Source of the DNA: Eledone cirrhosa
Lineage: Eukaryota
DNA: 64,000 nt
Direction of reading: 5' to 3'
Assembly (NCBI GenBank): GCA_964016885.1
Contig: OZ024742.1
Coordinates: forward strand, 183,954,001 to 184,018,000
Under the pieces are notes generated by a model, which searched no databases, was not told the origin of the DNA, and worked only from the letters and a program-made list of their open reading frames with translations. Position numbers and translations under genes: made by a program. Shown one piece after another: positions 7,501-48,386 of the stretch; the first letter of the stretch is position 1, and each line of letters begins with the position of its first letter.

Positions 7501-10500
7501 TGGCCTACATATTTGAACTTTTTTACATATTAAAAAAATATCGAGAATAAAGAAACACAAAAAAAACATGGCTGATCCACGCCCCCCTCAACGATATGTC
7601 TGCTGTCGTGTGTGTGACAACGACGTAAAAGTTGAGAGGAGCGTTACGGCGAAATTAACAGAAATTGATACAACAAACACCACCACAAACAACGTGAACA
7701 AAGACAGCAATGATAACAACACTGAAAACTCTAATTTTGAAAAAAATGACACTAACAGCGACAACCAAAATACAGATAACAGAAAAAATGACAACAAATG
7801 CAACAACAATATCAACAGCACTAACATGAAAACAAATAGCGACAACAGCAACAATACCAACTGCACCGAGAACAACGGCGGCACCAAAGACAATAATGAT
7901 AACAGCGACAGTGATAACAACAACAACACCAACAAGAACAACGACAACAACAACACCACCAACGACAACAAGAAGAACACTTTCGCTGCGGCAACAGCCA
8001 AAAAGAGGCCATGCTTCAACATGGACCTCTCAAACAAAGATGAAAAGTTGGCCCAGGCCTGGAAGCTCATCAAGCAAGAGCAAACCTGGGAACTGTCCCG
8101 GCAGAAGCTATTGAGGCAGTGGAGCGAAGAACGGTGCATTATAGATGCATCTCAGTACAAACCAAAAGGGCAGCTTTAATCCCACAAGCAGATGTCGAAG
8201 TCGCGCTGAGGTGCATTAGGGATGACACCGAATACATAGCGAGGGGCAGACAATACGGCACCATTTCGGTGCTGTTTAAGTCAGAAGCCCTCGCTATGAA
8301 ACACGCTATGAAACACGCTATGACACCTTGCAAAACCAGCAAGGTCATAATGTACCCCTCCCACATGGGAAAAAGAACAGCCTGTCTCCGCATTCCCAGA
8401 ATCCCACCAGGACTTGACATGTGGTGGCTTCTGGGATGTGTGATTGTGGAGGGGACGGATACCGTCCCGATAGAAGTAACAAGAACTGCCAAAGAGGACT
8501 GGTCCGGGGTTGACCTGGAGATACTTCTCCAGATCAGGCTGGAGAATGGGACGGTCATACACATTATGACCGAGGACAAAAGGCCGCATTGTTTTGTTTG
8601 TGGGGAAAAACCCATTTGCGAGCCTTCTGCCCTCAACTGCTGAAAGATGCAAGCGGTCGAAGGGCTCCATTGCTGCCGACGCCGGGGCGAGGACCACAAC
8701 CAACACCAGCACCGGCAAAACCACCAGCAACAACACCAATAGAAAGACCACCACCAACATTGACCACCCAGAGGGGAAACGAGGGAAGTTGTCAACCTCC
8801 CCCCCCCCCCCAAACAAAAAATGCACATCAATAAAAACATAAACACACACACGGACACACTTACAGACACAGACTCCTTATCTACCAGTAGTGAAGATGA
8901 GGGAAAACCAAAATCCCCCAAAATACAAAAAAGGAAACACAAAAAGAAAAAAAAACAACTCAACAAAGCACAAAAACGCCCACAATAAAAAATGCAGACA
9001 CCACCCACGCAAACATCTCCCCAACAACACCAACATCAACACCACCATCACTATCACCATAATCCCCCAAACGCAAACAACCTAAACAGACGCAAGAACA
9101 AATACACACATAAATATCTGAAACCACAGGCACCGCACTTACAACAAACACAGACACAACCGAAACAACATCATCGAAACCATCACCACCACAGCAACAC
9201 AAACAAATAAAATCACACCAACAAAACATACAAAACTTCGTGCTCGTCAGGAGGGCCAACAAGGAACTGATGGCCCTCGTAGCACGAAGTGAAAATATAC
9301 AAAAAGAGGGGGAAATTTTTAAATCGAGCACATTTCGCGTGCCGGAAGATTTGGTTCTGGTGCGAATGTCGATCGAAGTATACAAAGAAATAGGAGACAG
9401 CTTTCCTCGGGACGTGGAAACCGCGAACGTAAAACCAACTTCAAGACTTTTAAAGGGGTTCCCAAAAGAAACCCCACCAACTATGGAGGTCGAACAAACC
9501 GACCTTCACAAGAGCCCGGAAGGTAAGTAAACCTTTCCTCTCTCTCTTTTTAACCTGCCAACATGGCCGTATTAAGAGTAGGATGTTTAAATGTTCGAGG
9601 CCTGGGATCGTCCTGGAAGCAGGGTCACCTGCTCAATGACCTCAGGTCTCTAGAAATGGATGTAATTGCCGTCAGCGAGACCAGGATTTTCGACACGCGC
9701 GCACTAGCCCCCATTTTCGACGACTATCAGATCTTTGCATCTGTTAGCCGGCCGGGAATGGGAGGCGGGGTGGCAGTGCTGTTTAGGAAAGGCCTGGATC
9801 TTGAGGTAAGGTCGATCTTCCGGGACCTGGACAGGAAGTTGGTGGTCCTGGACGTGAACAATAACGAAGGTGGTGCCTTTAGACTGGTGGTCGTCTATGC
9901 TCCTACTGGGGCAGGACGGCCGGACTTCTTTAGACGCCTGGAAACCTTTCTGGGCACGTCTCGCCCTTTACTGTTAGCGGGGGACTGGAACGGCATCTTA
10001 GACGCACGCTGGGACTGTGTGGGAGTAACTGATAGGAGCGGGGGTGCAAAAGCCTTAAGAACCTGATCAGCCAGTTCCAACTGTCTGACAGGTACCGACT
10101 AGATTTCCCTAATACGCCAGTGTGGACCTGGGCTAACCGCATAGGGTCATCTAGTTCGTATATAGACAGGATATTCATTAGGAAAATAGACAGAAATAAT
10201 GTAAGCTGTCCACGTTTTAAAACGGTCGCCTATTCAGATCACAAGTTTGTGATCTGTATAGTCGACCTAGATAAGACGCGTAGGTTAGGACCTGGTTACT
10301 GGAAGCTAAACATGTCATTTCCGGCACGTAAGGCTTACAGGGACCAGGTCAACAATTTAGTTAAGAAAAAGTTGACAGGGGGAGTCGTCAACAATAGATG
10401 GTGGGGGGAGGGGGGCTCTCAAAAGAAAGATTAGAGTAATGTCGATAGAGTTTAGCAAAGAAGTAGCGTTAGAGAAAAATAGAAAGGAGGGGGAGTTGGT

Positions 10501-21744: not shown

Positions 21745-21769
21745 TATTATTATTATTATTATTATTATT

Positions 21770-24700: not shown

Positions 24701-26310
24701 TTTAGGATGTCAACCGAATCTTGTCCTAGCCCGTCAGCATTCATCTCCTCAGTGGCCGTATCTCTGTTCCAGGTATTATTTATCTCAGTACTCAGATCAT
24801 TGTCTGCTTCGGGTGGTTCCTCCGTTCTCAGGACCTCCTCACCTTCATTTCCCACCGGCTCGCTTGTCTGGCATACTACACCCGCCATCTCCAAGCCATT
24901 CTCTCTGCTCAGTTCCTCCAGTTCCAGCTCGCTTATCCACCCATTAGTTCTTATTACCCGAGCCTGCCCGGCCAATTTTTGTTCATCTAATTTAAATAAA
25001 CCAATCTCGTTCCAGATGTTATGCATCCGTCTCCTGTAGCCCCTCTCCTTGGGGTTACTTTTCAGGTAGCATTGCATAACAGTTCTATTCAATTCTTTCG
25101 TCCAGTTGGTTCTGGCCCCTTTCCTTCTTCTCCTTCCTCCAACATCAGCAGTATTTGGTTGACAGTCAGGTTCCTGCTGCTGAGCCAGGGGGCACCTGTT
25201 GGGTGAGAGTCTGTCACATGACGTTCTAGTCTCCATTTCACCGTTATTCGAACTGTTTATGTTCGATATTTAAACACTCTTATCGAGGATTGGCGAATGT
25301 ATGTTTACATAGCCATCTGTGGATCCGCCATCCCACTTGGCCCTTGTGTGGCATTATCACCACGCTGTATACGAACACACATAAACAAACAAACACACAG
25401 GCAGAAAGGGCCCCAAAAATGCATATGCATAAGTTTCATTGTAATGTAGTGTTCGAATGTCTGACTTAGTTTTAGTTTTTTAAGTTTTACTTTTTCCCCC
25501 CTCTTCTCTGTCCGTCCGCCTGCTTCTTTCTTCATTCTTATTTTCTTTACGTTTTTGGGGTTTCTTTTTTTTGTTTTTGTTTTTCTCTGTTTGTTTTTCT
25601 CGTTTTTTGCTGTTGTTGCTGTGCTGCTTTGGTTTTGTTGTTTGTTTTTTCTTTTTTCTTTTGAGTCTATCTATATATTTTGATGCCTTCCTCTTTGTTA
25701 GTAGTAGGAATTCTATAATGTGGAAGTAGCAGCCAGCAGGGGGAAGTGGGAGACTGGCGGCGTTAGCGATACTGAGACAGTGGTGGTGGTGATGTCGATA
25801 CCGAGGCAGTGGTGGCGGTGATGTGACCGTATTACTGTAGTGATGGTGCTGTAGCGGAGTCAAGGGGTGGTGGCGGCGGTGATGGGATAGTGGTGGTAAT
25901 GATGGCCGTAGTGAGCGGTGGCGGTGAAGGTGAAAATGTGTCGTTATCTGGCTGTTGTGTTTAGTGTACACAGATGATGGGGTGGGTGGTGTATCTAGTT
26001 TCTGGTGTTGGTGAGTTTAGCTGTCCTATATAGTGTAGCCAGAGGAGAGGAGGGGGGGGGGGGTTCTTCTTCCATTTATAGCCATTTTTTTTTTTTTGGA
26101 TATACAGTGTACAATACAAAGTTGAATATTTGAATATTTGAGCCTTATAACAATATATTTTGGGTCCGAATTTTTTGGGGCTCAAGCCGGGTGCTTTACG
26201 TAGCATTTGTACTAAGAGTTGTTATTTCACAAATGGTTTAAATATGTTAAAAATTCAAAACTTACGGGAGCGATTTCATGACCTCCGTCACCTCGTGCGT
26301 CTTCTTCCCT
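21770..26310 (-). mobile_element. Full-length R4/Dong-type RLE retrotransposon, copy B1
   Basis: ~1.07-kb 5' UTR, single long ORF, short 3' UTR, (TAA)n on both sides; 5' end identical to B2. Confidence 0.92.
21844..25236 (-). pseudogene. RT-CCHC-RLE polyprotein (1130 codons) split by one in-frame TAG at 22774-22776
   Basis: 820-aa and 296-aa ORFs in the same frame, 13 sense codons apart. Motifs [56 protein letters not shown]. No N-terminal zinc fingers. Confidence 0.9.
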
Positions 26311-26543
26311 TTATTATTATTATTATTATTGAATGCCATGGTTGACGGAGGCTCGGCTCTGTAAGGTATAGTAATTTTTAACCGTTAAAACAATTGTAAA
26401 TTGTTTAAAACTTGAACCAAATTGTTGATAAAGACACCCTCCTCCTCGTGAGAGGGGTCTTTCTGTCCGTTATTTGGCCCTTCGGGGTTAAATAGCCAGT
26501 TATTGGGGTTTTGTACCCAAAATTTCATTTTAAACAAAACAAC

Positions 26544-28643
26544 ATGGCTACCAAAAAAAAAAAATTTCATACGTCACTCCCACTCATTCCGTCTTCTTCT
26601 TCCTCAATCATCACTACAGGAGAGAGAAGATTGTCTCTCTCCCTCCCTTCTTTAAATGTGTCTCTCTCCCTACCTTCTCTTTCGCAAGCGACGAAAGAAA
26701 AGAAAAGTCTCGTGCAAAGCGTGCAAGGTTTCTCCACGACGACGACGACAGCGACGAAACAGGTGTGCGGGAAATACGAAAACCCAGTTCATTCGTCTGA
26801 CGTCAGGAATAATAGCAGTAGCAGCCGTAATAACAACAGCAACAGTGACAATGAAAACAACAGTAGCAGCCGCAACAGCATCACCAGCAGCATAAACAAC
26901 AACAGCATTAGCAGCAGCAACACCAACAACAACCACAGCAACAGCGGCGGAGGCAGTAGTCGTAGTACCTGCAGCAACAACAAAAGTACCAGCAGCTCTG
27001 ACGACAACAACAACAGCAGAGAAAAACCAATCTCATTTGCAGGTATTGCGAAAAACCTGGAAACAATCCTCATAACAAATGAGGAATTAGAGGAAGCGAA
27101 GAAGATGGTGACAAAGAACGGACACCGAGCAATCTGCAAGGCAGCGAAAAATTTTTTCGAAACCCAAGAGCACTGTACGGTCACGTACCGTACAGTAAGT
27201 ACAAAATCCCGTAGGGTGGAAAGAGCCACAGAGGCCCAAATACAAAAAGCCTTGGGGTCTGTGTGGCAGAGGAAAACGCACATCACCCGAGGCAAAAAAT
27301 ACGCCACCGTAGACGTACTTTTTGCCACACCCCAGGAGGCAAAGGCCCAATCAGTAGTGACCCTAAGGAGCGAGGAAATGGTGTTGGTGCCCTCCTACTG
27401 CGGGCAAAAAATTGTGAGGGTCAAACTGACCCACGTCCCCCCCGGAATGACCCCTTCTTGGCTGGCCGCGTCTGTCCTCGTCGGAATCGAGGACAAAACA
27501 ACTGTACTGCAAGTACAGAAAAAAGTAAGAGAAGATTGGGTCGGCTCCTCCATTGAGATGCTAATCCAAACCAACCAGGAGTGCATCGAAGCTATCCCGG
27601 ATGTGATAGACTTCGATAACGGCACTCAACTGCCCATAAGTGTTGAGGGCAAACGCCCGAAATGCTTTCGCTGTGGATCGAAGACTCACCTCAGGGCCTT
27701 CTGCAACGAGAAGACCCTGAGAAAGGAGAAAACCCCCCTCCTCCCGAATCCGGTTCCACGGCTACCAGCAACAGGACAAGCGGCAACCAGGAACGATAGG
27801 TCCGTGGCACCCATACCCACTCCACGGAAATCAAAGACAGCAGCAGCAGTGGAAATATTAACAACAACAACAGCAATACCAAATGCAGCTGCAACAGAGA
27901 CTCCAGTGCAAACATCACCAACAACAACAAGTGAAAGAGTGGAGCTGGTACCCCTCCCCGACCTTACAGAATCAGACATGGAGTGTGAGGTGGGAGAGGG
28001 ATGGCAAAAGGTCTCAAGAAGGCACAAACGCAGAAGCAGCGCATCGTCGCCTTTGAAAAGGGAGGAAAGAAATGAGAAAAGGGTAAAGTCTACTGCAAAG
28101 AGACCCACAGCAGCAACACCACCAACACCATCACCACCCACACCAGCACCACCATCACCACCGGCGACAACCCCACCGCCAACAACACCTTCAACACCAC
28201 CACCACAAGCACCAACATCGCAAACACAACAACAAAACACACACACCCAGCAACAACGACAAGAAAATAGCAGAACCACACCCCACCCCCAGAAAAACAA
28301 ATGCACGGCAATAAACACACACAACAAGAAACTAATGACTTACATAATTGAACACACAGACATTTCACAACAGGACTACATAATACCAGCACCAATCAAA
28401 ACGCCAACTAACATAAGACTGCTAAAAATAGCACAGAAACAATACACAAACATTAAAACGAAATTCCCCAACGCAGTTGGTGATTTCAGGGACCTAGGAG
28501 GAACCATTAATCGAAGAGTATATTCAGACATTCTCTTAGAAGAGCCGACGACCAGCCGAAGGGACGATTCAACGGTCCCTTCACCAGACGATCAAGTGAA
28601 AAGGGATGTAAAAACCATCCCTCCTCTACCAAAAATACGGTAA
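26544..28643 (+). CDS. LINE ORF1 protein (gag-like nucleic-acid-binding), ~699 aa
   Basis: First ATG at 26544 in AACATGG context; Ser/Asn-rich N-terminus, CX2CX4HX4C knuckle CFRCGSKTHLRAFC, basic patch, Pro/Thr-rich tract. Confidence 0.9.
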   Translation: MATKKKKFHTSLPLIPSSSSSIITTGERRLSLSLPSLNVSLSLPSLSQATKEKKSLVQSVQGFSTTTTTATKQVCGKYENPVHSSDVRNNSSSSRNNNSNSDNENNSSSRNSITSSINNNSISSSNTNNNHSNSGGGSSRSTCSNNKSTSSSDDNNNSREKPISFAGIAKNLETILITNEELEEAKKMVTKNGHRAICKAAKNFFETQEHCTVTYRTVSTKSRRVERATEAQIQKALGSVWQRKTHITRGKKYATVDVLFATPQEAKAQSVVTLRSEEMVLVPSYCGQKIVRVKLTHVPPGMTPSWLAASVLVGIEDKTTVLQVQKKVREDWVGSSIEMLIQTNQECIEAIPDVIDFDNGTQLPISVEGKRPKCFRCGSKTHLRAFCNEKTLRKEKTPLLPNPVPRLPATGQAATRNDRSVAPIPTPRKSKTAAAVEILTTTTAIPNAAATETPVQTSPTTTSERVELVPLPDLTESDMECEVGEGWQKVSRRHKRRSSASSPLKREERNEKRVKSTAKRPTAATPPTPSPPTPAPPSPPATTPPPTTPSTPPPQAPTSQTQQQNTHTQQQRQENSRTTPHPQKNKCTAINTHNKKLMTYIIEHTDISQQDYIIPAPIKTPTNIRLLKIAQKQYTNIKTKFPNAVGDFRDLGGTINRRVYSDILLEEPTTSRRDDSTVPSPDDQVKRDVKTIPPLPKIR

Positions 28644-28645
28644 GT
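28640..28645 (+). promoter_or_regulatory. Candidate 5' splice site overlapping the ORF1 stop codon
   Basis: CG|GTAAGT; the same hexamer lies at the ORF1 stop at 9523, 39727 and 44677. Confidence 0.55.
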
Positions 28646-28678
28646 GGTCTTTCCCATCTTTTCCACTCTATTTTAAAC

Positions 28679-31600
28679 ATGACCTCACTCAGAATAGGCA
28701 GCATAAATGCGCGTGGCTTGGGGTCGTCATGGAAGCAGGGTCACCTGCTCAACGACCTCAGGTCACTAAACATAGATGTAGTGGCCATCAGCGAGACCAG
28801 AATCTCCGAAGCACGGGCCTTCGCACCGATCTTCGGCGGCTACGATGTGTACGCATCTCCCAGCCGTCCTGGATCGGGTGGAGGAGTTGCTGTGCTTTTT
28901 CGGAGAGGTTTGGATCTCGCCATACGGGCCATCTTCCTGGACCCAGAGGGTAAGCTGGTGGTGCTGGACGTGACCAGCGGAGACGGGCAAGCTTTCAGGC
29001 TAGTGGCCGTCTATGCCCCGACAGGAGCAGGGCGGCCTGATTTCTTCCGGCGTCTGGAGACCTTTCTTGGAACGTCGCGCTCTTTAGTGTTAGTGGGCGA
29101 CTGGAACGGGATCTTAGATGCACGCTGGGACTGTGTGGGATTAGCGGATAGGGGTGGAGGGTGCAAGAGCCTCACCAACCTGCTCAGGCGTTTTGAACTG
29201 TCTGACAGGTACCGATTGGATTTCCCGAATGTGCCAATGTGGACTTGGACAAACCGCATAGGGTCATCCAGATCATATCTAGATAGAGTATTTTGTAGGG
29301 AAATAGATAGGTCTAGCATAGGCTGTCCACAATTCAAGATAGTCAGCTACACGGACCACAAATTCGTGATCTGTGTGCTTGACTTAGATAGGCTTCATAG
29401 ACGAGGACCCGGCTACTGGAAGCTAAACGCGTCCTTACCAGCGCGCAAGGCCTACAGAGACCGGATTAGCGAACTAGTTAAGCGGGCGTTGACGGGGGCC
29501 ATCGTCAACAACAAGTGGTGGTTTGCTCTGAAAAGAGCGATTAGAATAGAATCGATTAGGTTTAGTAAGGCTTTAGCAATAGAGAAAAATAGAGCAGAGG
29601 GAGAACTAGTTAGAAAATTAGACGAGGCGCTTAGCAAAGGCATTGCGACCGACGTGCTTGCGGCGAAATTGGCCCTTGACCAATTCTTCAATGCAAAGCA
29701 CGAAGGCTGCGTTGTCAGAGCTAGGGTGCGTGCTCTCAGACACGAGGGGACGAAAGCCGTTCAATGGGCCCGAGTGGCGGAGGCGCGTCGTGGCAACAAA
29801 GCCACGATCCGGTCTTTGGTGGACCACGACGGGCGCATGCTACTCGATCCCGGGCAAATGTGTGAAGCTTTTCAGCGACACTTCGCTCAGCTGTTCGGGG
29901 GCAGCGGGGGGCCGGGTAGAGGGATGGACTTTAGTGTCTACCTCGACGGACTGCCGCGGCTCTCGGCCACTGAGGCGAAGTGTTGCGAAAAGCCGATAAC
30001 AGCCGCTGAAGTAAGGGAGGCAATGACTGGCTGCACAAGGGGTAAATCGCCTGGTTTGGATGGTCTGCCCTATGAACTTTACGTACAGATGCCAGACTTG
30101 TTCGGAGGCCTCTTGGCGGACGTCTACTGCAACTGGCAACAGAACGGGAGAATTCCCAGTTCTGTGAGCCGAGGAGCGGTGGCACTGCTGAGAAAGGATC
30201 CGAACAAGGGGGATAACATAGAAAATTTCCGGCCCATAACTCTGCTAAACACAGAGTTTAAGATTTTGGCCAAGGTGCTAGCAAAGAGGTTGGCGCTTGT
30301 CGTTGGTGGTCTGGTGGGAGAGGCGCAGACATGCGCCATTCCCGACAGATCCATCCACGACAACCTCCACCTCATGCGATACATCGTAGAGAGGGTAGCT
30401 AGGGAACCTGGCACGGGTGGGTCCTTGATCAATTTAGATCAGTCGAAAGCTTTCGATAGGGTCGACCATCGTTACCTAGCGGCAGTCCTGAGGGCGGCTG
30501 GCTTTGGGCCCGTCTTCAGAGGCTGGATCGCTGCCATGCACAGCGACATCTGCTCTGTGGTGAGAGTGAACGGTCACCTGTCGGAACCGTTCAACATCAT
30601 GCGCTCGGTCCGCCAAGGATGTCCCCTCTCGTCCCTCTTGTACGTATTGACTCTCGAGCCATTACTGCACAAACTGGAGACGTTGAGGGGAGTCCCGCGC
30701 GAACTAGGATGCGGAAGATCCGTGTCAGCATATGCGGACGATGTCACCGTAGTGGTGTCGAACGCCAAACACATCGAGGCGATCGGCACTACACTAAGAG
30801 AATACGAAGCGGTGACAGGAGCAATGATCAACCAGGAAAAGTCAGTGGGCCTGCAGCTCGGCACCTGGAGAGGCAGGTCCATGCCGTCCAACAGCGTCGT
30901 CGGGCGCTGGACGGACGGACCGGTTAAATTGCTAGGGGTCTGGTTCGGTCCGGACCTCCAGACGGACAAAAACTGGGACGAGGTGACGAGCAGGGTGGCT
31001 TCTCTCACCCAGAAATGGGCGGAGAGGAAGCTATCCCTGAAAGGTCGAGCGGAGGTGGCTAACGCGTACATCGCGTCTGTCATCTGCTACCGCCTAACCG
31101 TCGTACCTTGTCCTAAGCCTCGCCTGACTGCGCTGGAGCGTTTGCTCTTTCGCTTTTTGTGGAAGGGACGTGCTCCGATGGTCAGGCGGTCCATCTGTTG
31201 TCAACACCCGCTACGTGGAGGGCTGGGCATGCCGTGGCTGATGATGCGCAGGCACGCGCTCAGGCTACGACATCTCCACCTCTTCCTCGACGGTGATCAG
31301 GTGTGGTCGCCGTTTGCTAGACGCGTTTTTCCCCAGCTCGTTTCCTTGACGGAGCTGCAGTCCTGGGTCAAGCGAAGACCGAGAGGGAGCGCCTGGAGAC
31401 TGGAATGTCTTCAGGCGCTCACAGCCCTCGACCAATCGGGCAATGTGATCGGTGGAAACTCCACCTCGGCGTTCTATAGAGGATTAGTGGAGGGGAAGAG
31501 CGACGACGTACTTGGGGAAACTCTAGGCGTCGACGAAAATCAACTAGCCAATCTCTTCGGAAGAACCTTCGGGCCAGGGCCTATGGACAACTTCCAGAAA

Positions 31601-32098
31601 TCTCTGGCCTGGCAGTGCTACCGAGGAGCCTTGCCAGTTCGGGATAAACTCTACAGGCATGGAGGTGCCGTCAGCCGGGCATGTCCGAGATGCGCGCAGG
31701 GCGACGAAACCGTCCTGCACGCACTCGTCCAGTGTCCGAAAATTGCTGACTTGTGGGTTTATGTCGAACACCTGCTGTCGCGTTTAGGACGGATCCAGCT
31801 ATCATCTGAGTCTATCGTGAGGATTGCCCCGCCCTCCTCCTTTAGCCGGGAAGGGCAGGCAGTTTTTATCTGTCTGGTGGCCATGGCGAAAGAGATAGTA
31901 TGGTGGACACGTTTGAAAGGGCTGAAGACGAGCACTTACCTCTTCGGTGATGCTCTGATTGACTTTTTCAAATTTCATTTGAAAAGGAAAATCAGAGTAG
32001 AGAAGGAAGTGCTCTCTTCCCAGCATTTTGTTGAAAGATGGGTGAGAGAAGCAAGAATGGCCCGAGTGAATGGGCCGACTCTGAGTATATATCTGTAA
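28679..32098 (+). CDS. LINE ORF2: APE endonuclease + reverse transcriptase + C-terminal zinc finger, 1139 aa
   Basis: SINARGL, SET, GDWN, YLDR, TDH; GYWKLN; KSPGLDG, FRPITLLN, LDQSKAFDRV, VRQGCPLS, YADD; CPRC...ETVLHALVQC. Confidence 0.95.
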   Translation: MTSLRIGSINARGLGSSWKQGHLLNDLRSLNIDVVAISETRISEARAFAPIFGGYDVYASPSRPGSGGGVAVLFRRGLDLAIRAIFLDPEGKLVVLDVTSGDGQAFRLVAVYAPTGAGRPDFFRRLETFLGTSRSLVLVGDWNGILDARWDCVGLADRGGGCKSLTNLLRRFELSDRYRLDFPNVPMWTWTNRIGSSRSYLDRVFCREIDRSSIGCPQFKIVSYTDHKFVICVLDLDRLHRRGPGYWKLNASLPARKAYRDRISELVKRALTGAIVNNKWWFALKRAIRIESIRFSKALAIEKNRAEGELVRKLDEALSKGIATDVLAAKLALDQFFNAKHEGCVVRARVRALRHEGTKAVQWARVAEARRGNKATIRSLVDHDGRMLLDPGQMCEAFQRHFAQLFGGSGGPGRGMDFSVYLDGLPRLSATEAKCCEKPITAAEVREAMTGCTRGKSPGLDGLPYELYVQMPDLFGGLLADVYCNWQQNGRIPSSVSRGAVALLRKDPNKGDNIENFRPITLLNTEFKILAKVLAKRLALVVGGLVGEAQTCAIPDRSIHDNLHLMRYIVERVAREPGTGGSLINLDQSKAFDRVDHRYLAAVLRAAGFGPVFRGWIAAMHSDICSVVRVNGHLSEPFNIMRSVRQGCPLSSLLYVLTLEPLLHKLETLRGVPRELGCGRSVSAYADDVTVVVSNAKHIEAIGTTLREYEAVTGAMINQEKSVGLQLGTWRGRSMPSNSVVGRWTDGPVKLLGVWFGPDLQTDKNWDEVTSRVASLTQKWAERKLSLKGRAEVANAYIASVICYRLTVVPCPKPRLTALERLLFRFLWKGRAPMVRRSICCQHPLRGGLGMPWLMMRRHALRLRHLHLFLDGDQVWSPFARRVFPQLVSLTELQSWVKRRPRGSAWRLECLQALTALDQSGNVIGGNSTSAFYRGLVEGKSDDVLGETLGVDENQLANLFGRTFGPGPMDNFQKSLAWQCYRGALPVRDKLYRHGGAVSRACPRCAQGDETVLHALVQCPKIADLWVYVEHLLSRLGRIQLSSESIVRIAPPSSFSREGQAVFICLVAMAKEIVWWTRLKGLKTSTYLFGDALIDFFKFHLKRKIRVEKEVLSSQHFVERWVREARMARVNGPTLSIYL

Positions 32099-32239
32099 AC
32101 TAAAGGTGGAAAACTGGGAGAGGGCACTTGCCTTGGTGGTCAGGGTCATTGTGGCTTTTTACTGGGCTTTCTCCACAAATGTTCCTCCGAAGTCTCCCCC
32201 CTATTGGGGAATTTTTCATTGTTATTTTCATTGTTATTT

Positions 32240-32276
32240 TTGTTACATCCTCTATTTTTGTTTTTTTTACACGCAG
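32240..32276 (+). promoter_or_regulatory. Candidate 3' splice site in the Tx1 3' UTR
   Basis: ~80-nt AG-free pyrimidine-rich tract ending TTTTTTTTACACGCAG; equivalent AG at 48301-48302. Confidence 0.45.
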
Positions 32277-32359
32277 AAATGCCCATTTGTACCGTCCTGC
32301 ATTGTCCTGCACTGTCCTTAATGTCTACTTTATGTAAACCCTTGTGGTTAATAAAGAAA

Positions 32360-32421
<62 letters not shown>

Positions 32422-32427
32422 ATTATT

Positions 32428-35400
32428 GTTCTTTGAGTCTCAGTCATTGATGTTAGTTAACTGGAAAGTTTGTTGAAATGAATATCAAGCCACTACCTGC
32501 AGCCTCAGATATTCAGGACGTATCGGAGGGTTCTTGCTGTTCCCAGCAAGCATGCCTTTTGAAGTGTTCCAAAAAGCGGGGCGGGGCCAATTTTCTTTAA
32601 CCGTCCCTGGAAACTTTTTGAGATAGTACCTAGTGCGCCTATGACAATCGGGACACTTTGACTTCATGGCAGTTCCAAATCCTTTTTACCTCCCACTTTA
32701 AGTCCTGGTATCGGTTAATTTTCTCCCTCTCCTTCTCTTGCACTCTCGTGTCGAATGGGCAGGCCACATCCACAATCAGGCACGATCTTTTTTCCTTGTC
32801 CAAAACCACCAGGCCAGGTCTATTGTGTTCCAGTTTTTTGTCCATCTGTATCCTAAAATCCCACAGCACCTTCACCTGATTGTTCTCCATCACCGCCTCT
32901 GGCCTATGCTCATACCATTTCTCAGAATGTGGTAGATTGTTTACTTTGCACAGGTGCCAGTGGATCACCCTGCCCATCACATCGTGTCTCCAGCCCTTAT
33001 AGTGGGTCTGGGCTAGGTGTTTACACTCGGACACAATGTGAGCCACAATCTCCTCTCTCTCTCCACAGATCCTGCACAGTGGGCTAGCCTCCTCCTTGTA
33101 GATATGGTGCTTCAACCACTTCGTTTTGAGGGCCTGCTCCTGCGCAGCCATTAGCATTCCTTCTGTAGCCTTTTTGAGGTCTCCTCTTCTCAACCAGTTC
33201 CATGTCTGTGGATCTCTAAATTCAGTTTTCTCAAAGAAGGTACAATGAAGGGATTTTCCCTTAAGGCTGCTCTTCCTCCTTGATGTTATTTCCTCCCTGG
33301 ACATCCCCTGGCCTACTGTCCCCTCCTTCAGTACAGTTCTGAGCATTGGCTCCTTACTATAGGTCACGTATTTGTATAGGTTGTTTTTCTCCATCTGAAC
33401 ACAGTCCTCTATGCTGATAAGACCTCTTCCACCCTAAGATCTCCTTAGGTAGAGTCTATCGACATCACTCCTCTTGTGGAACATGTTGTAGATAGTCAAT
33501 AGCTTCCTAGTCTTCCTATCCATTTCTTTTTGTTCAGCAACATTCCATCTCAGAATTCCCGCACTGTACCTAATAATAGACACAGCTCGGGAATTTACTG
33601 CGCTTATGGCATTTCTGCTGTTCAGATGTGACTTCAATACGCTCCTTACTCTCCGAATGTATTCAGTTCTTAACAATTCCTTCATTTTTTTGTTCTTTAT
33701 GCCATCAGCCTCCAGAACGCCCAAATACTTGTATCCTTCCTCAGAGTCAATTTCCTTTATCATCTCACCTGTTGGTATCTGGATCCCGTTACTTCTGCTC
33801 AACCTACCCCTCTTCATCACAATGACTCCACATTTACCAATACCAAACTGCATACATATATCACTGCTGAAAATACGGACAGTGTCAACAAGCACATCCA
33901 ACTCCTTCTCACTTTTCCCGAAGAGCTTAAGATCGTCCATGAAGAGGAGGTGATTGATGGTAAGCTCTCCCCTTCCCAACTTGTATCCTGCTCTCACTTT
34001 TCGCAGCATAATGGTCAAGGGCATCAGGGCAAGGACCAACAACAGAGGGGACAGGCTATCTCCCTGGAAGATACCTCTCTTGATCTTCACGCTTCCCAAG
34101 GATACTCCAGTTGATGTCAACTCTGTCTCCCAGGACCCCATACTCCTGCCTAGCAACTGTCTGATGTTATCCGCCACCCTGAAGATCTCCAGGCTTTTGG
34201 TGATCCAGGAATGAGGCACCATGTCAAATGCCTTTCTGTAGTCTATCCATCCCATGGCAAGATCAGTGTGTCTCCTCCTGCAATTCCCCATTACCATCTT
34301 ATCAATAAGCAACTGGTCCTTTGTACCACGTGACTTCTTTCGGCATCCTTTCTGTTCGTCCGGTAACAAGTTGTTTGTGTGGAGGTGATGGTAGATTTCC
34401 TCAGACACAATGCTCGTCAACAGTTTCCACATTACGGGCAGACATGTGATAGGTCTATAGTTGGTAGCATCATTACCCTTGATTCGGTCTTTCATTATCA
34501 GAACTGTGGTACCTTTTGTCAACCACTCTGGCACCTCACCCGACACCAAGCAGTCATTGAACATGGCCGTCAGCTTCGGGTGGAGGGATGTTAGATGTTT
34601 AATCCAATACCCCTGCACACCATCTGGGCCTGGTGATTTCCAGTTGGTTAGTTTTTTGGTTTGCCCCTTAAGAGTTTCAACTGTGATACTCAAATCAGTC
34701 TGTTGCTGTGCCTGCTCACCGATCTCCCTCTGTACTGTCTCAATCCACCCTGCCTGGGCATTGTGTCTAACATCCTGCTCCCATATTCCTCTCCAGAATG
34801 TTTTAGTTTGTTCCGCCCCAGGGATCAAGTCGTTGCCTCTTTCTTTGCCCTCAAGCTGTCCAAACAGCATCTTCTGGTTGTTGTCGAACATGCGGTTCTG
34901 TTTATACTGACTGACTCTGTTCTCGTATCGCCTGATTTTTGCACTCTTTGCTACAATGCGTTGCTTCAATTCCTCTATGATAATATTTAGCTTTTTACTC
35001 CTAGTTTTGTATTTTATTTCCAGTCTATTTTTAGTGCCTATGTTTTTTAGTGTCCCATTCAGTAGTGACTCAAGCTTTCCTATGTCATTTCTCATTTCCC
35101 CGATTTGCCCACTCAGTCGCTTCTTCCACCACGGCTCTGCTCTTTCTTGTCTGTTGTTTCCTCTCGCTTTTATACCAAGTAGTTTCCTCACCGTATTTGC
35201 TGTTGCTCTGAGGATATTGTTGCACTGGTGAAGGCTCCTCGCCTCAAGGTATGGGATGACTTTGTTTACCTTAGCTGTTGTTTCTTTTAACTTTTTCCTG
35301 TCTACAAATCTTAGGTTCATAGGTCTCCCACTATCATTGTTCAATTCATCTACCACTAAATTTAGGATGTCAACCGAATCTTGTCCTAGCCCGTCAGCAT

Positions 35401-36967: not shown

Positions 36968-36968
<1 letters not shown>
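32428..36968 (-). mobile_element. Full-length R4/Dong-type copy B2 (B1-type body, B3-type 3' end)
   Basis: Near-identical to B1 at offset 10660, including the TAG at 33434-33436; the 3'-most ~390 bp instead match 37040-37430, with C-terminal frameshifts. Confidence 0.92.
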
Positions 36969-37033
<65 letters not shown>

Positions 37034-38731: not shown

Positions 38732-41700
38732 ATCGACGCTATCCCCGATATCATAGACATCGAGGAAGGACTCCAACTCCCTATAAGTATAGAAGGAAGA
38801 TGGCCAAAATGTTATCTCTGTGGGTCGAAGGGTCACTTCAGGACCTTTTGCCCGCAGAAGACAGCGAAGAAGGCCCCTCTCCTTCCAATACCTGGTCCGC
38901 TGCTACCAAGAGCAGGGCAGGCAACAAACGAAGAAGCCCCTTCCACGGTGAGTAGGAGGGCAACGTCCGTAGCACCCGTACCAAGGCCACGGACAACTAA
39001 AGCAGCATCATCAGTGGCAGCAACACCAATAGCTACATTTGAAGTAACTAAAATAGCAACAGAATTGCCGAAGAGGGCTCCACTACCACCACCAACAGCC
39101 GTGGAGCACATACCCCTCCCAGACACCACAGAATCCGACATGGAGTTTGAGGCGGGAGTGAAGTGGAAAACGGTCTGCCACAAAAAAAACAAAAAGGAAA
39201 AACTCCTTAGATTCACCCTCCAAAAGCGAAGGCATACAAAGAGGGTTAAAGGCAGAAAGGAAACTTGCAGCAACACCACCACCATCACCACCACAAGCAC
39301 CACTGACAACAACAACCACACCACCACCAGCATCACTAAAAACACCAACAACGCAAACACAACAAGACACACACACCAAACAGCAACAAGAAGAAAACAG
39401 CAACAAAATCACCCCCCCCCCCCCCAAAAAAAAAAGTACAAAGCCATAAACATGGCAAAAAAAAGAACTCATACAATATATAAAGAAGCACACAGACATC
39501 ACAGAAAAAAACTATTACACCCCACCAACACCAAGAACTCCCCCGACAAACATAAGCATCATCGAAATCTCAATAGAACAGTACAAACCTTTAAAACAAA
39601 AATTCCCCAACGCAGTTGGAGACTTCAGAGGGTCGGTTACCAAGAGGATATACACTGACATCCTCTTGGAAACACCCATGACCAGCGAAAGGAACGGTTA
39701 TACTGTCCCTTCACCACACGATCAAGGTAAGTGACCCTTTCTCACTTGCCCCGTTTCTCATCCAACATGGCCGTACTCAGAATAGGCAGTATAAATGCAC
39801 GTGGCCTGGGGTCATCTTGGAAGCAGGGTCACCTGCTCAACGACCTCAGGTCACTAAACATAGATGTGGTGGCTATCAGTGAAACCAGAATCTCCGAAGC
39901 ACAAGCCTTCGCACCGATCTTCGGCGGCTACGATGTATACGCATCTCCCAGCCGTCCAGGATCTGGGGGAGGGGTTGCCGTCCTTTTTCGGAGAGGCTTG
40001 GATCTCGCGATACGGGCCATCTTCCTAGACCCAGAAGGTAAGTCGGTGGTGCTGGACGTGACCGGCAGCGAAGGCAATGCTTTCAGGCTATTAGCCGTCT
40101 ACGCCCCAACAGGGGCAGGACGGCCAGAAGTCTTTTGACGTCTAGAGACCTTTCTTGGAACGTCCCGCTCTTTAGTGTTAGTGGGAGACTGAAACGATAT
40201 CTTGGATGCACGCTGGGATCGTGTGGGGCTAGTGGATATGGGAGGAGGGTGCAAGAGCCTCACCAACCTGCTCAGACGTTTTGAACTGTCTGACAGGTAT
40301 CGACTGGATTACCCGAATGTGCCAATGTGGACATGGACATGCCGCATCGGGTCATCCAGATCGTATCTCGATAGGGTATTCTGCAGAGAACTAGATAAGG
40401 CTAGTATAAGTTGTCCACAATTTAAAATAGTCGACTACACAGACCACAAATTTGTGATCTGTGAGATCGACATAGACAGACTTCATAGACAAGGGCCTGG
40501 TTACTGGAAGCTGAACGCGTCTTTCCCGGCGCGCAAAGCCTACAGAGACCGGATTAGCGTATTAGTTAAGCGGGCGTTGACGGGAGCGGTCGTCAACAAC
40601 AGGTGGTGGTTCACCCTGAAAAGGGCAATTAAAGTAGAGTCGATTAGGTTTAGCAAAGGAGTAGTGATAGAGGAAAATAGAGTAGAGGGAGAGCTAGTCA
40701 GAAAGCTGGAAGAGGCGTTTAAGACAGGCATCGCAACCGATGTGCTTGCGGCGAGATTGGCACTCGACCAATTCTTCAACGCAAAACACGAAGGCTGCGT
40801 TGTCAGAGCTAGAGCGGGTGCTCTGAAACACGAGGGGACAAAAGCCGTCCAATGGGCCCGGGTGGCAGAGGCGCGACGTGGCAACAAAGCCACAATTCGG
40901 TCTTTGTCTGACCAAAACGGGTGCGTGATGCTCGAACCCGAGCGGATGTGTGAAGCTTTTCAGCAGCACTTTGCTGAACTGTTCGGGAGCGGCGGCAGCC
41001 CGGATCGGGGCATGGACTTCAGTGCATACCTCGACGGACTGCCTCGGCTCTCGACGACTGCAGCACAGTGTTGCGAAAAGCCAATAACAGACGGTGAAAT
41101 ACGGGAAGCGATGGCTAACTGCACAAGGGGTAAATCGCCAGGTTTGGATGGTCTGCCCTACGAACTTTATGCATTTATGCCAGACTTGTTCGGTGACCTC
41201 TTGGCAGACGTCTACTGCAACTGGCAGCAGAACGGGAGCATTCCCAGTTTTGTGAGCCGGGGAGCAGTGGAGCTGCTGAGAAAAGACCCGAACAAGGGGA
41301 TGTTATCGATAATTTCAGGCCCATAACCCTGCTAAACGGAGAGTTCAAGATTTTGGCCTAGGTGTTAGCAACGAGGTTGGCGCTTGTCGTCAAGGGTCTG
41401 GTGGGAGAGGTGCAGACATGCGCCATTCCGGACAGATCCATACACGACAACCTCCACCTCATGCGATACATCATAGAGAGGGTGGTTAAGGAACCTGGCA
41501 AGGAGCAAAGGAACAAAGCATTCGATAGGGTTGACCATCGGTACCTGGCGGCGGTCCTCGAGGCAGCCGGTTTCGGGCCCGTTTTCAGGGGTTGGATCGC
41601 AGCAATGTACAGCGACATCTGCTCAGTTGTGAGGGTGAACGGTCACCTGTCGCAGCCGTTCAGCATCATGCGCTCAGTCCGCCAGGGTTGTCCCCTCTCG

Positions 41701-43458
41701 TCCCTCTTGTACGTATTGGCTCTCGAACCGTTACTGCACAAACTGGGGGCGATGAGGGGCGTCCCACGCGAACTAGGATGCGGGAAATCCGAGTCGGCTT
41801 ACGCTGACGACGTCACCGTGGTGGTGTCGAGCACCATACACGTCCAGATGCTCGGCACAGCTCTAAAGGAATACAAAGCGATGACAGGAGCAAAGATAAA
41901 CCAGGATAAGTCGTTGGGCCTGCAGCTCGGCACCTGGAGAGGAAAGTCTATGCCGTCCGACAGCGTCGTGGGGCGTTGGACGGACGGACCGTTAAATTGC
42001 TCGGGGTATGGTTCGGGCCGGACCTCCAGATGGAGAAAAACTAGAACGAGGTGACGAGCAGGGTGGCCTCCCTCACCCAGAAATGGGCCGAGAGGAAGCT
42101 GTCCCTGAAAGGTCGTGCGGAGGTGGCGAATGCGTACATCGCATCCGTCATCTGCTACTGCCTCACCGTCGTCCTTTGCTCCAGCCCAACTCTCACCAAA
42201 ATGGAGCGCCTCCTCTTCCGCTTTTTGTGGAAGGGACGTGCTCCCATGGTCAGACGATCCATCTGCTGTCAACACCCGTTGCGTGGAGGACTGGGCATGC
42301 CATGGCTGATGATGCGCAAACATGCGCCATCTCTGGGGCTTCCTTGATGGTGAACAGGTGTGTTCGCCGTTCGCGAGGCACGTATTCCCACAGCTCGTCT
42401 CCTTGACGGAGCTGCAGTCCTGGGTCAGAAAAAGACCGAGGGATAGCGCTTGGAAACTGGAATGTCTCCAGGCGCTCACTGCCCTCTGCCAGCCAGGGAC
42501 CAGTATCGGTGGAACATCCACCTCGGCGTTCTATAGAGGACTAGTGGAGGGGAAAAGCGACAACATTCTCGGAGAGATCCTGGGCGTCGAAGAAGATCAG
42601 CTGTTTGCTCTCTTCCGGAGAACTTTCAGCCCGGGGCCTATGCATAACTTCCAAAAATCCCTGGCCTGGCAGTGTTACCGGGGAGCGCTGCCGGTTCGAG
42701 ATAAGCTCTACAGGTACGGAAGTGCCGTCAGCCGAGCCTGTCCGAGATACGCGCAGAGCGACGAAACCGTCATGCACGCACTCGTTCAGTGCCCGAGCAT
42801 TGTTGACTTGTGGAGCTATGTCGAACAGTTGCTGTCGCGTGTAGGACTGATCCGGTTGTCGACTGAGTGCATTGTGCAGATGGTCTCGCCGTCTTCCTTC
42901 GAGGAGGAAGGTCAGGCGGTTTTCATCTGCCTGGTTGCCATGGCGAAAGAGATTGGGTGGTGGACAAGGTTAAAAGGGTTAAAGACAGACACTTTCCTCT
43001 TCGGCGAATCCCTAATTAACTTTTTCAAGTTTCACTTGAAGAGGAAAATCAGGGTGGAGAGGCAAGTGCTGCCTTCTAGCAAGTTTGTTGAAAGGTGGGT
43101 GAATGTAGCGAGAATGGTCCGAGTGAACGGGACCGCTCTGAATATACGTCTGTAGTTTGAGAGATGGAAAAATTGAGAGAGGGCGCTTGCCCTGGTGGTC
43201 AGCGTGGCCGTGGTCTTTTGTGTGGTTTTCGCCACGAGTAACCCTCGGAGGTTTCCCCCCTATTGGGGAATTTTTCATTGTTTCAATTTTCATTTTTATT
43301 GTTTATATATATATATGTTTCTATGTCCTTTTTTTTTCTTTTCTTATATACATAATAAAAATATTTACTAGCATAAAACCCACATCGTACCGTCCTGTAC
43401 CGTCTTGTGCCGTCTGTAATGTTTTTCTTGATGTCAGCCCTTGTGGCCAATATAGAAA

Positions 43459-43490: not shown

Positions 43491-46400
43491 GAATGCCATG
43501 GTTGACGGAGGCTCGGCTCTGTAAGGTATAGTAATTTTTAACCGTTAAAACAATTGTAAATTGTTTAAAACTTGAACCAAATTGTTGATAAAGACACCCT
43601 CCTCCTCGTGAGAGGGGTCTTTCTGTCCGTTATTTGGCCCTTCGGGGTTAAATAACCAGTTATTGTGGTTTTGTACCCAAAATTTCATTTTAAACAAAAA
43701 ACAACATGGCTACGAAAAAGAAATTTCATACGTCACTCCCACTCATTCCGTCTTCTTCTTCCTCAATCATCACTACAGCAGAGAGAAGATTGTCTCTCTC
43801 CCTCCCTTCTTTAAATGTGTCTCTCTCCCTCCCTTCTCTTTCGCAAGTGACGAAAGAAAAGAAAAGTCTCGTGCAAAGCGTGCAAGGTTTCTCCACGACG
43901 ACGACGACAGCGACGACACAGGTGTGCGGGAAATACGAAAACCCAGTTCATTCACCAACAACAACAAGTGAAAGAGTGGAGCTGGTACCCCTCCCCGACC
44001 TCACAGAATCAGACATGGAGTGTGAGGTGGGAGAGGGATGGCAAAAGGTCGCAAGAAGGCACAAACGCAGAAGCAGCGCATCGTCGCCTTTGAAAAGGGA
44101 GGAAAGAAATGAGAAAAGGGTAAAGTTTACTGCAAAGAGACCCACAGCAGCAACACCACCAACACCATCACCACCCACACCAGCACCACCATCACCACCG
44201 GCGACAACCCCACCGCCAACAACACCTTCAACACCACCACCACAAGCACCAACATCGCAAACACAATAACAAAACACACACACCCAGCAACAACGACAAG
44301 AAAATAGCAGAACCACACCCCACCCCCAGAAAAACAAAAGCACGGCAATAAACACACACAACAAGAAACTAATGACTTACATAATTGAACACACAGACAT
44401 TTCACAACAGGACTACATAATACCAGCACCAATCAAAACGCCAACTAACATAAGACTGCTAAAAATAGCACAGAAACAATACACAAACATTAAAACGAAA
44501 TTCCCCAACGCAGTTGGTGATTTCAGGGACCTAGGAGGAACCATCAATCGAAGAGTATATTCAGACATTCTCTTAGAAGAGCCGACGACCAGCCGAAGGG
44601 ACGATTCAACGGTCCCTTCACCAGACGATCAAGTGAAAAGGGATGTAAAAACCATCCCTCCTCTACCAAAAGTACGGTAAGTGGTCTTTCCCATCTTTTC
44701 CACTCTATTTTAAACATGACCTCACTCAGAATAGGCAGCATAAATGCGCGTGGCTTGGGGTCGTCATGGAAGCAGGGTCACCTGCTCAACGACCTCAGGT
44801 CACTAAACATAGATGTAGTGGCCATCAGCGAGACCAGAATCTCCGAAGCACGGGCCTTCGCACCGATCTTCGGCGGCTACGATGTGTACGCATCTCCCAG
44901 CCGTCCTGGATCGGGTGGAGGAGTTGCTGTGCTTTTTCGGAGAGGTTTGGATCTCGCCATACGGGCCATCTTCCTGGACCCAGAGGGTAAGCTGGTGGTG
45001 CTGGACGTGACCAGCGGAGACGGGCAAGCTTTCAGGCTAGTGGCCGTCTATGCCCCGACAGGAGCAGGGCGGCCTGATTTCTTCCGGCGTCTGGAGACCT
45101 TTCTTGGAACGTCCCGCTCTTTAGTGTTAGTGGGCGACTGGAACGGGATCTTAGATGCACGCTGGGACTGTGTGGGATTAGCGGATAGGGGTGGAGGGTG
45201 CAAGAGCCTCACCAACCTGCTCAGGCGTTTTGAACTGTCTGACAGGTACCGATTGGATTTCCCGAATGTGCCAATGTGGACTTGGACAAACCGCATAGGG
45301 TCATCCAGATCATATCTAGATAGAGTATTTTGTAGGGAAATAGATAGGTCTAGCATAGGCTGTCCACAATTCAAGATAGTCAGCTACACGGACCACAAAT
45401 TCGTGACCTGTGTGCTTGACTTAGATAGGCTTCATAGACGAGGATCCGGCTACTGGAAGCTAAACGCGTCCTTACCAGCGCGCAAGGCCTACAGAGACCG
45501 GATTAGCGAACTAGTTAAGCGGGCGTTGACGGGGGCCATCGTCAACAACAAGTGGTGGTTTGCTCTGAAAAGAGCGATTAGAATAGAATCGATTAGGTTT
45601 AGTAAGGCTTTAGCAATAGAGAAAAATAGAGCAGAGGGAGAACTAGTTAGAAAATTAGACGAGGCGCTTAGCAAAGGCATTGCGACCGACGTGCTTGCGG
45701 CGAAATTGGCCCTTGACCAATTCTTCAATGCAAAGCACGAAGGCTGCGTTGTCAGAGCTAGGGTGCGTGCTCTCAGACACGAGGGGACGAAAGCCGTTCA
45801 ATGGGCCCGAGTGGTGGAGGCGCGTCGTGGCAACAAAGCCACGATCCGGTCTTTGGTGGACCACGACGGGCGCATGCTACTCGATCCCGGGAAAATGTGT
45901 GAAGCTTTTCAGCGACACTTCGCTCAGCTGTTCGGGGGCAGCGGGGGGCCGGGTAGAGGGATGGACTTTAGTGTCTACCTCGACGGACTGCCGCGGCTCT
46001 CGGCCACTGAGGCGAAGTGTTGCGAAAAGCCGATAACAGCCGCTGAAGTAAGGGAGGCAATGACTGGCTGCACAAGGGGTAAATCGCCTGGTTTGGATGG
46101 TCTGCCCTATGAACTTTACGTACAGATGCCAGACTTGTTCGGAGGCCTCTTGGCGGACGTCTACTGCAACTGGCAACAGAACGGGAGAATTCCCAGTTCT
46201 GTGAGCCGAGGAGCGGTGGCACTGCTGAGAAAGGATCCGAACAAGGGGGATAACATAGACAATTTCCGGCCCATAACTCTGCTAAACACAGAGTTCAAGA
46301 TTTTGGCCAAGGTGCTAGCAAAGAGGTTGGCGCTTGTCGTTGGTGGTCTGGTGGGAGAGGCGCAGACATGCGCCATTCCCGACAGATCCATCCACGACAA

Positions 46401-48386
46401 CCTCCACCTCATGCGATACATCATAGAGAGGGTAGCTAAGGAACCTGGCACGGGTGGGTCCTTGATCAATTTAGATCAGTCGAAAGCTTTCGATAGGGTC
46501 GACCATCGTTACCTAGCGGCAGTCCTGAGGGCGGCTGGCTTTGGGCCCGTCTTCAGAGGCTGGATCGCTGCCATGCACAGCGACATCTGCTCTGTGGTGA
46601 GAGTGAACGGTCACCTGTCGGAACCGTTCAACATCATGCGCTCGGTTCGCCAAGGATGTCCCCTCTCGTCCCTCTTGTACGTATTGACTCTCGAGCCATT
46701 ACTGCACAAACTGGAGACGTTGAGGGGAGTCCCGCGCGAACTAGGATGCGGAAGATCCGTGTCAGCATATGCGGACGATGTCACCGTAGTGGTGTCGAAC
46801 GCCAAACACATCGAGGCGATCGGCACTACACTAAGAGAATACGAAGCGGTGACAGGAGCAATGATCAACCAGGAAAAGTCAGTGGGCCTGCAGCTCGGCA
46901 CCTGGAGAGGCAGGTCCATGCCGTCCAACAGCGTCGTCGGGCGCTGGACGGACGGACCGGTTAAATTGCTAGGGGTCTGGTTCGGTCCGGACCTCCAGAC
47001 GGACAAAAACTGGGACGAGGTGACGAGCAGGGTGGCTTCTCTCACCCAGAAATGGGCGGAGAGGAAGCTATCCCTGAAAGGTCGAGCGGAGGTGGCTAAC
47101 GCGTACATCGCGTCTGTCATCTGCTACCGCCTAACCGTCGTACCTTGTCCTAAGCCTCGCCTGACTGCGCTGGAGCGTTTGCTCTTTCGCTTTTTGTGGA
47201 AGGGACGTGCTCCGATGGTCAGGCGGTCCATCTGTTGTCAACACCCGCTACGTGGAGGGCTGGGCATGCCGTGGCTGATGATGCGCAGGCACGCGCTCAG
47301 GCTACGACATCTCCACCTCTTCCTCGACGGTGATCAGGTGTAGTCGCCGTTTGCTAGACGCGTTTTTCCCCAGCTCGTTTCCTTGACGGAGCTGCAGTCC
47401 TGGGTCAAGCGAAGACCGAGAGGGAGCGCCTGGAGACTGGAATGTCTTCAGGCGCTCACAGCCCTCGACCAATCGGGCAATGTGATCGGTGGAAACTCCA
47501 CCTCGGCGTTCTATAGAGGATTAGTGGAGGGGAAGAGCGACGACGTACTTGGGGAAACTCTAGGCGTCGACGAAAATCAACTAGCCAATCTCTTCGGAAG
47601 AACTTTCGGGCCAGGGCCTATGGACAACTTCCAGAAATCTCTGGCCTGGCAGTGCTACCGAGGAGCCTTGCCATTTCGGGATAAACTCTACAGGCATGGA
47701 GGTGCCGTCAGCCGGGCATGTCCGAGATGCGCGCAGGGCGACGAAACCGTCCTGCACGCACTCGTCCAGTGTCCGAAAATTGCTGACTTGTGGGTTTATG
47801 TCGAACACCTGCTGTCGCGTTTAGGACGGATCCGGCTATCATCTGAGTCCATCGTGAGGATTGCCCCGCCCTCCTCCTTTAGCCGGGAAGGGCAAGCAGT
47901 TTTTATCTGTCTGGTGGCCATGGCGAAAGAGATAGTATGGTGGACACGTTTGAAAGGGCTGAAGACGAGCACTTACCTCTTCGGTGATGCTCTGATTGAC
48001 TTTTTCAAATTTCATTTGAAAAGGAAAATCAGAGTAGAGAGGGAAGTGCTCTCTTCCCAGCATTTTGTTGAAAGATGGGTGAGAGAGGCAAGAATGGCCC
48101 GAGTGAATGGGCCTACTCTGAGTATGTGTCTGTAAATTAAAGGTGGAAAACTGGGAGAGGGCACTTGCCTTGGTGGTCAGGGTCATTGTGGCTTTTTAAT
48201 GGGCTTTCTCCACGAATGTCCCTCGGAAGTCTCCCTCGTATTGGGGAATTTTTCATTGTTATTTTTTTGTTACATCCTCTGTTTTTGTTTTTTTACACGC
48301 AGAAATGTCCATTTGTACCGTCCTGTATTGTCCTGTACTGTCCTTAATGTCTACTTTATGTAAACCCTTGTGGTTAATAAAGAAAG
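43491..48386 (+). mobile_element. Defective Tx1-like LINE (T3), same subfamily as T1
   Basis: Intact 5' and 3' ends; ~1.12-kb ORF1 deletion at ~43953, CAA>TAA at 44267, TGG>TAG at 47341 in ORF2. Confidence 0.93.

Follow-up and report, generated by a model that had tools for sequence, protein, structure and literature searches.

A predicted 5' splice site lies at the end of ORF1 in every sampled subfamily of a LINE family from Eledone cirrhosa. The conserved donor is real, coding does not account for its conservation, and selection very probably acts on the motif as a nucleotide signal. The preferred explanation is that part of the RNA is spliced from this donor so that ORF2 is removed, which would give an ORF1-only mRNA as in copia; the odds on it are about even (a probability of roughly 0.5). 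An ORF2-spanning intron had been proposed by an earlier model-made annotation (the sequence-only reading). That proposal is partly supported, in that constraint on the donor supports a splice-signal role. As judged from the DNA it is a reasonable prediction, but its acceptor needs revision for most of the family.

The window is the whole stretch of DNA that was analysed, 64,000 nt of contig OZ024742.1. It contains four copies of the family, T0 to T3 (Table 1). T1 and T3 are 96% identical and belong to one subfamily, so three subfamilies are represented, as had been noted before. T1 is an ordinary L1-group LINE. Its ORF2 carries APE, RT and C-terminal zinc domains (Pfam PF03372, PF00078 and PF13966), and the nearest solved structure is human L1 ORF2p (E 1e-52, residues 5-854). 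The element also has an upstream ORF1, a poly(A) signal and a simple-repeat tail, and LTRs are absent. A Pfam search with T1 ORF1 gave no match; named relatives of this protein are found in Octopus sinensis, O. bimaculoides, O. vulgaris and Argonauta hians. The Tx1 label is taken from the sequence-only reading and from target preference: an (ATT)n 5' flank is present in all 18 E copies with a located 5' end (20 were fetched). The junction of ORF1 and donor in T1 has 1,521 exact copies in the genome; this is a young LINE.

Table 1. Positions in the window of the LINE copies and of the features discussed
Feature	Position	Strand	Description
T0	~9.5 kb		subfamily A
T1	26331..32418	+	full-length L1/Tx1-type LINE, subfamily E, (ATT)n tail
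T2	~38.7-43.5 kb		subfamily B
T3	43491-48411		subfamily E
T1 ORF1	26544..28643	+	699 aa, one CCHC knuckle, low-complexity tail
T1 ORF2	28679..32098	+	1139 aa; APE endonuclease, RT, zf-RVT; stop is TAA in subfamily E
T1 predicted 5' splice site	28637..28645	+	ACG|GTAAGT over the ORF1 stop, phase 2; sole donor of at least 8/9 in T1
T0 donor	9520..9528	+	AAG|GTAAGT, subfamily A, phase 1
T2 donor	39724..39732	+	AAG|GTAAGT, subfamily B, phase 1
T3 donor	44674..44682	+	subfamily E
T1 inter-ORF spacer	28644..28678	+	pyrimidine-rich, AAC at its end before the ORF2 ATG
T2 proximal candidate acceptor	43153..43160	+	TAG stop of ORF2; TGA next, in the phase of the donor
T1 predicted 3' UTR hairpin	32198..32211	+	within the predicted intron of T1; conserved across subfamilies
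T1 T-rich tract and distal candidate acceptor	32212..32276	+	CAG; C/D/D2/E clade only
T1 predicted last exon	32277..32361	+	19 codons, stop 32335-7, AATAAA 32350-5
T3 distal candidate acceptor	48295..48302	+	
T2 ACTAG	43367..43371	+	private change

Thirteen subfamilies (A, A2, A3, B, B2, C, D, D2, E, F, G, H and I/J; the labels are our own) were sampled from the 3.0-Gb genome of the animal by ORF2 patterns together with protein or DNA searches. They are deeply diverged: identity at four-fold sites is 0.52-0.70 among deep subfamily groups, and 20 of 89 four-fold ORF2 sites are invariant (13 columns, with I and J separate and D omitted). Splice donors were scored against the consensus MAG|GTRAGT. 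At the ORF1 end, the representatives of all 13 subfamilies (one each) match it at 8 or more of the 9 positions. The site lies 25-53 nt upstream of the ORF2 ATG and is the best or tied-best donor of the whole element in every representative. By comparison, the 52 other invariant GT columns reach a donor score of only 6/9 at best, and 0.7-0.8% of random stops would be expected to overlap a donor of at least 8/9. Conservation of the donor is above chance. Subfamilies G, H and I/J provide a prospective test, having been recovered from an ORF2 pattern alone; all carry the donor.

In the window, G|GTAAGT is found at 9523, 28640, 39727 and 44677, and the ORF1 stop stands in the registers that the sequence-only reading gave for these copies. 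That reading also held that coding does not explain the conservation, and anticipated that the donor would be kept over many family members. Both points are supported by the 13 subfamilies, in which the motif occurs in three phases. The phase is 2 in C, D, D2, E, F, G, H and I/J, 1 in A, A3, B, B2 and older A2 copies, and 0 in seven of the eight main A2 copies; for the decayed F, H, I/J and B2 it is derived from a few intact copies plus homology. In the phase-0 copies of A2, ORF1 continues for nine codons beyond the donor, which there encodes neither the final residue nor the stop. ORF1 stops associated with the donor are TAA or TAG, and TGA in two stray copies. The final stretch of ORF1 varies in sequence and length between subfamily groups.

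Two distant ORF1 relatives, with only about one-third identity to the T1 protein, terminate in QGK (P0095) and EGKS (P0098, from Argonauta), which at the protein level is the translation of a phase-1 donor. Another relative ends in GKKWKQN, and five more distant ORF1 proteins have no end of the QGK or EGKS type. Twenty-five distant L1/Tx1 loci from metagenomes were examined; such a donor is present in only one of the 15 with a clear ORF1 end, so the donor is a trait of T1's lineage. A relative (25%) on a metagenome contig has GGG|GTGAGT over its ORF1 stop in phase 1 (L204:1925-1935), which at 1/15 is compatible with chance.

Under partial splicing, U1 would bind the donor at the ORF1 end, and a fraction of the RNA would be spliced from it to a proximal or a distal acceptor. 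Most subfamilies would take as acceptor the AG within the stop codon of ORF2 (CTRTAG|, with a GA-rich tract and an almost immediate stop behind it), so that the spliced RNA would encode nearly the same ORF1 protein. The C/D/D2/E clade, with T1 and T3, would have lost the proximal AG (TAG to TAA) and would use a strong distal CAG. The spliced product would be a short ORF1 mRNA with its stop in the last exon. In unspliced RNA, ORF1 would end in or just past the donor; this RNA would allow ORF2 to be made and would be the template for transposition. The purpose would be a surplus of ORF1 protein from the short mRNA, like Gag in copia. The fuller claim is more tentative, at somewhat below even odds: a LINE lineage may have converged on the copia strategy, with the whole of ORF2 as a retained intron between the ORF1 and ORF2 stops, and in T1's clade the acceptor may have moved past the 3' UTR hairpin.

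The ORF1:ORF2 ratio of two-ORF LINEs is generally thought to be set in translation from one RNA. A selected splice that removes ORF2 would add an RNA-processing route so far known from LTR elements, and ORF1 reads in octopod RNA-seq would then not imply transposition-competent RNA. Should the site act without splicing, the family would still provide a new cis-element, namely a U1 site retained over deeply diverged LINE subfamilies. A literature search, thin on subscription papers, found no comparable case; this does not prove the case unpublished.

ORF2 ends in CTRTAG followed by a GA-rich stretch in the nine subfamilies outside C/D/D2/E. The stop is TAG in 59 of 59 copies tabulated from these nine (a few single copies in which this stop is mutated, among them L333, L400, L414 and L418, were excluded) and TAA in 21 of 22 copies of C/D/D2/E. 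When the donor is joined in silico to the ORF2-stop AG, the donor-matched frame runs into a stop within three codons for 9 of 10 types (0-3 codons in A, A3, both A2 types, B, B2, G, H and I/J), against 4 of 20 non-matched frames; the rows of the 9/10 count are related, hence a count by independent clade, which is 3/4 (p about 0.11). For G, H and I/J the predicted protein is the same as that of unspliced ORF1. F is mismatched and would gain a tail of 27 codons. The stop 3 nt past ORF2 is also kept in C/D/E, for which it would serve no purpose. Among about 265 AGs per element the ORF2-stop AG ranks from 1 to 24, being first in G and H; its acceptor score is weak (about 0) in A, B and I. A compensatory frameshift in A2 was considered and is weakened, as the +1 after the acceptor is already present in phase-1 A2 copies; TAG is found in 4/5 phase-1 versus 3/10 phase-0 copies (p 0.12). 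Conserved acceptors within ORF2 were rejected as candidates, those found being mostly codon-forced.

The distal candidate is the one named by the sequence-only reading. The tract ending ACACGCAG is present at 32275-6 in T1 and 48301-2 in T3; the AG-free stretches are 84 and 73 nt long. Joining 28639 to 32277 in silico does keep ORF1 open, add 19 aa and stop 12 nt before AATAAA (32350). This CAG outscores every other AG of the element in C, D, D2 and E (by a crude score with approximate weights), and 7,922 3' ends in the genome bear it. Its strength is specific to that clade, however. The T-rich tract is family-wide and is kept in F, H and A3, where no YAG stands behind it; G has only a polymorphic YAG there, beside the poly(A) signal. 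The distal AG does not stand out from its surroundings in conservation: it never varies among 71 3' ends, and the same is true of 38 of 78 neighbouring positions. The ACTAG once proposed for T2 (43370-1) is rejected as a family acceptor, since it is private to T2; the other B-type 3' ends examined (L100, L111, L112 and L113) read ACGCAC at this place, which contains no AG. Likewise the distal ACAG of one F copy (L293) is private and absent from the other 15 aligned F 3' UTRs. A stop in the distal tail is found for phase 2 in 61 of 68 ends and for phase 0 in 66 of 68, and does not discriminate. Seven of 66 matches are deletions or truncations ending at the distal acceptor, with zero at a GT; in the control 30 of 332 matches were read, diluted by an amplified variant.

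Each subfamily thus carries one of two candidate acceptors, the distal one being confined to the clade without the proximal one; they are split across complementary clades, and none is common to the whole family. One copy (L114) has both. An older acceptor at the ORF2 stop, switched to the distal site in T1's clade, would fit as a post hoc account. The sequence-only reading supposed that the ORF1-only mRNA retains the 3' end. In C/D/E it would keep part of it but lose the conserved hairpin at 32198-32211, which is predicted in all 13 subfamilies (though only weakly for the folded copies of G and H). Spliced RNA of T1's clade would then drop a likely reverse-transcriptase recognition signal and could not compete as template.

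Precisely spliced genomic copies, whose absence the sequence-only reading counted against itself, were found in 0 of 166 anchored matches. The donor-anchored patterns (an ORF1 end without the normal donor) gave 7, 24, 22, 7, 1, 2, 14, 15 and 8 matches; all 100 were read and are point changes, small indels or breaks in unspliced copies. The acceptor-anchored patterns (the last exon without the preceding CAG) gave 59 and 7 matches, and none of these 66, all read, is joined to an ORF1 end. For the T1-type end this result is set against 7,922 intact 3' ends. The patterns were exact and left out C-type joins, A2 GCTAG joins, and F/G/H/I joins with A at +3. Internal deletions were rejected as splice products, with GT-AG ends in 0 of 53 rows (some duplicated); the internal ORF2 deletion of T0 does not have them either. 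An ORF1-only family carrying this junction was not found. The negative is softened by the need of an ORF2-less RNA for ORF2p in trans, and by the preference of L1 proteins for their own RNA (PMC5860796; this and the other PMC articles are cited from partial texts). It is softened further in that none of the sampled ORF2 deletions was seen again at an independent locus, and in that spliced RNA of C/D/E would be without the hairpin. It still weighs: if trans-mobilisation ran at a few tenths of a percent, as for L1, abundant spliced RNA would be expected to leave tens of copies.

Some copies have lost the donor. A GT-to-AT change is found in six E copies. Three donor-dead copies (L469, L470, L472) lie on three contigs with different flanks, have an intact ORF2 and form a clade (support 100/93) with three variants missing from the 15 intact-donor copies compared. 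Given these dispersed loci, either a donor-less copy probably transposed or gene conversion spread the tract, and a round of transposition probably does not require the donor. This lineage comprises only 3 of about 1,528 copies.

Several other roles for the motif can be weighed against partial splicing. U1 snRNP might bind it without productive splicing and act in cis on full-length RNA, for instance against premature cleavage and polyadenylation or for stability, the ORF1 end being the sole non-coding spot. This chief rival is unlikely, although it requires no conserved acceptor, predicts the observed absence of spliced copies and offers a directly selectable cis effect; in the Arabidopsis Ty1/copia element EVD, U1 suppresses premature termination (PMC5580714). 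It leaves the phase-matched stops unexplained, and the C/D/E clade has fixed a textbook acceptor yet is very abundant, which would be costly if splicing were waste. Nor is there a conserved AATAAA near the donor: those upstream are about as frequent as composition predicts, with none in B, C, H and I. HIV-like shielding of an upstream AATAAA was rejected for the same lack of conservation. It is more improbable still that the motif is not a splice signal and that its letters are inherited or held by other constraints, such as a basic last residue, a strong stop context or short divergence. ORF1 does end in R or K in most subfamilies, EGK codons at ORF2 +271 yield the same 9-mer in B, B2 and D2, and the donor-dead clade exists; loss of the +1 G after insertion (7 of 1,528) has no demonstrated difference from neutral decay. 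But the motif is retained in three phases, A2 included, and its variants (GTAAGT, GTAGGT, GTAATT, GTGAGT, GTTAGT) stay donor-like. By a crude, post hoc estimate, p is ~0.017 for three free positions staying fixed and ~1e-4 with the donor start included.

There is little probability that the donor is spliced elsewhere or without benefit, be it to acceptors in the host or the next copy, across a mini-intron in the spacer or with ORF1 and ORF2 as mutually exclusive exons. The spacer is pyrimidine-rich in all subfamilies and contains TCT-initiator-like motifs. It had been described as free of AG, which is true of the four window copies; A2, A3, B2 and C, however, carry YAG directly before the ORF2 ATG (spacer homologues in L098, L275, L101 and L350). 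In A2, A3 and C this YAG scores near the top of all AGs. Such a spacer resembles a mini-intron or an acceptor for an ORF2-only RNA, and copies are often in tandem. Against it, the AG is missing from the spacer of A, B, D, E, F, G, H and I, and the intron would be only about 30-50 nt. Evasion of HUSH is a poor rationale for the donor, since introns protect from HUSH without splicing and deletion of the 5' splice site left protection intact (PMC8770142).

Partial splicing has its closest parallel in copia. Drosophila copia and Arabidopsis Ty1/copia elements produce a spliced GAG-only RNA; in Drosophila copia the intron is ~3 kb and the RNA terminates at the natural 3' end, and U1 also protects full-length RNA of copia-type elements (PMC5580714). 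The LINE resembles these in having a donor at the end of the structural gene and a predicted removal of pol (here ORF2). However, they are LTR elements with one polyprotein in which splicing creates the GAG stop, whereas the LINE has two ORFs, its unspliced RNA already stops ORF1, and its splicing is predicted from sequence. Splice sites inside L1-group RNA are also known from the SpIREs and SpORF2 of human L1 (PMC5860796, PMC2896524). Those events remove the 5' UTR or ORF1 and keep ORF2, while the product predicted here is ORF1-only. SpIREs are described as dead ends and occur as genomic copies (PMC5860796, PMC2896524); here, in contrast, the donor is conserved and spliced copies are not found among the anchored matches. 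HAL1 (half-L1) is likewise an ORF1-only product of an L1-group element, but as a genomic non-autonomous derivative rather than an RNA (PMC5753468). TART is a non-LTR element with spliced transcripts, as predicted here, but its introns are reported in antisense RNA (PMC1636488). Kibi and Koshi, microsatellite-targeting elements of the Tx1 clade, share with this family two ORFs, the APE, RT and zinc domains, insertion into simple repeats and tandem arrays; they differ in target, which here is (ATT)n, or (ATCT)n-like in F/H/I (PMC4494074). L1-Tx1 families are listed as recently active in Octopus vulgaris (PMC13282606). The string 'splic' is absent from the part of that article available, and neither 'splic' nor 'intron' is present in the part available of PMC11203168.

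Further variation is seen within the family. The tail and target switch between subfamilies, from (ATT)n in A-E to (ATCT)n-like repeats in F/H/I (L339-L345, L390-L423), and the G copies (L331-L338) are embedded in one longer tandem repeat unit. A3 is another very young subfamily: a long open ORF1 frame of its type (627-670 codons) is found at at least 73 loci, L430-L459 among them, several of which are in tandem. Two copies are chimeric, L104 with an A-type 5' part and a D2-type 3' end and L116 with a C-type 5' part and an A2-type 3' end, pointing to recombination among subfamilies. ORF1 of T3 has a large in-frame internal deletion (window 43706-44269, corresponding to T1 positions ~26794 to ~27915). 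The E 5' UTR (window 26331-26543) is unmatched upstream of the other subfamily copies tested, save for 24 nt in D2, which suggests 5' UTR replacement in E; close to its start is a donor-like AAG|GTATAG.

A second, unrelated non-LTR element, which we take to be R4/Dong-like, lies on the minus strand. Two copies (21745-26330 and 32406-36988) are 99.3% identical, and fragments extend to 49737; it encodes an RT (PF00078) and a C-terminal zinc and nuclease-like motif. Copies of this element and of the Tx1-type LINE alternate at the same (ATT)n repeats, so the two families have one common microsatellite target.
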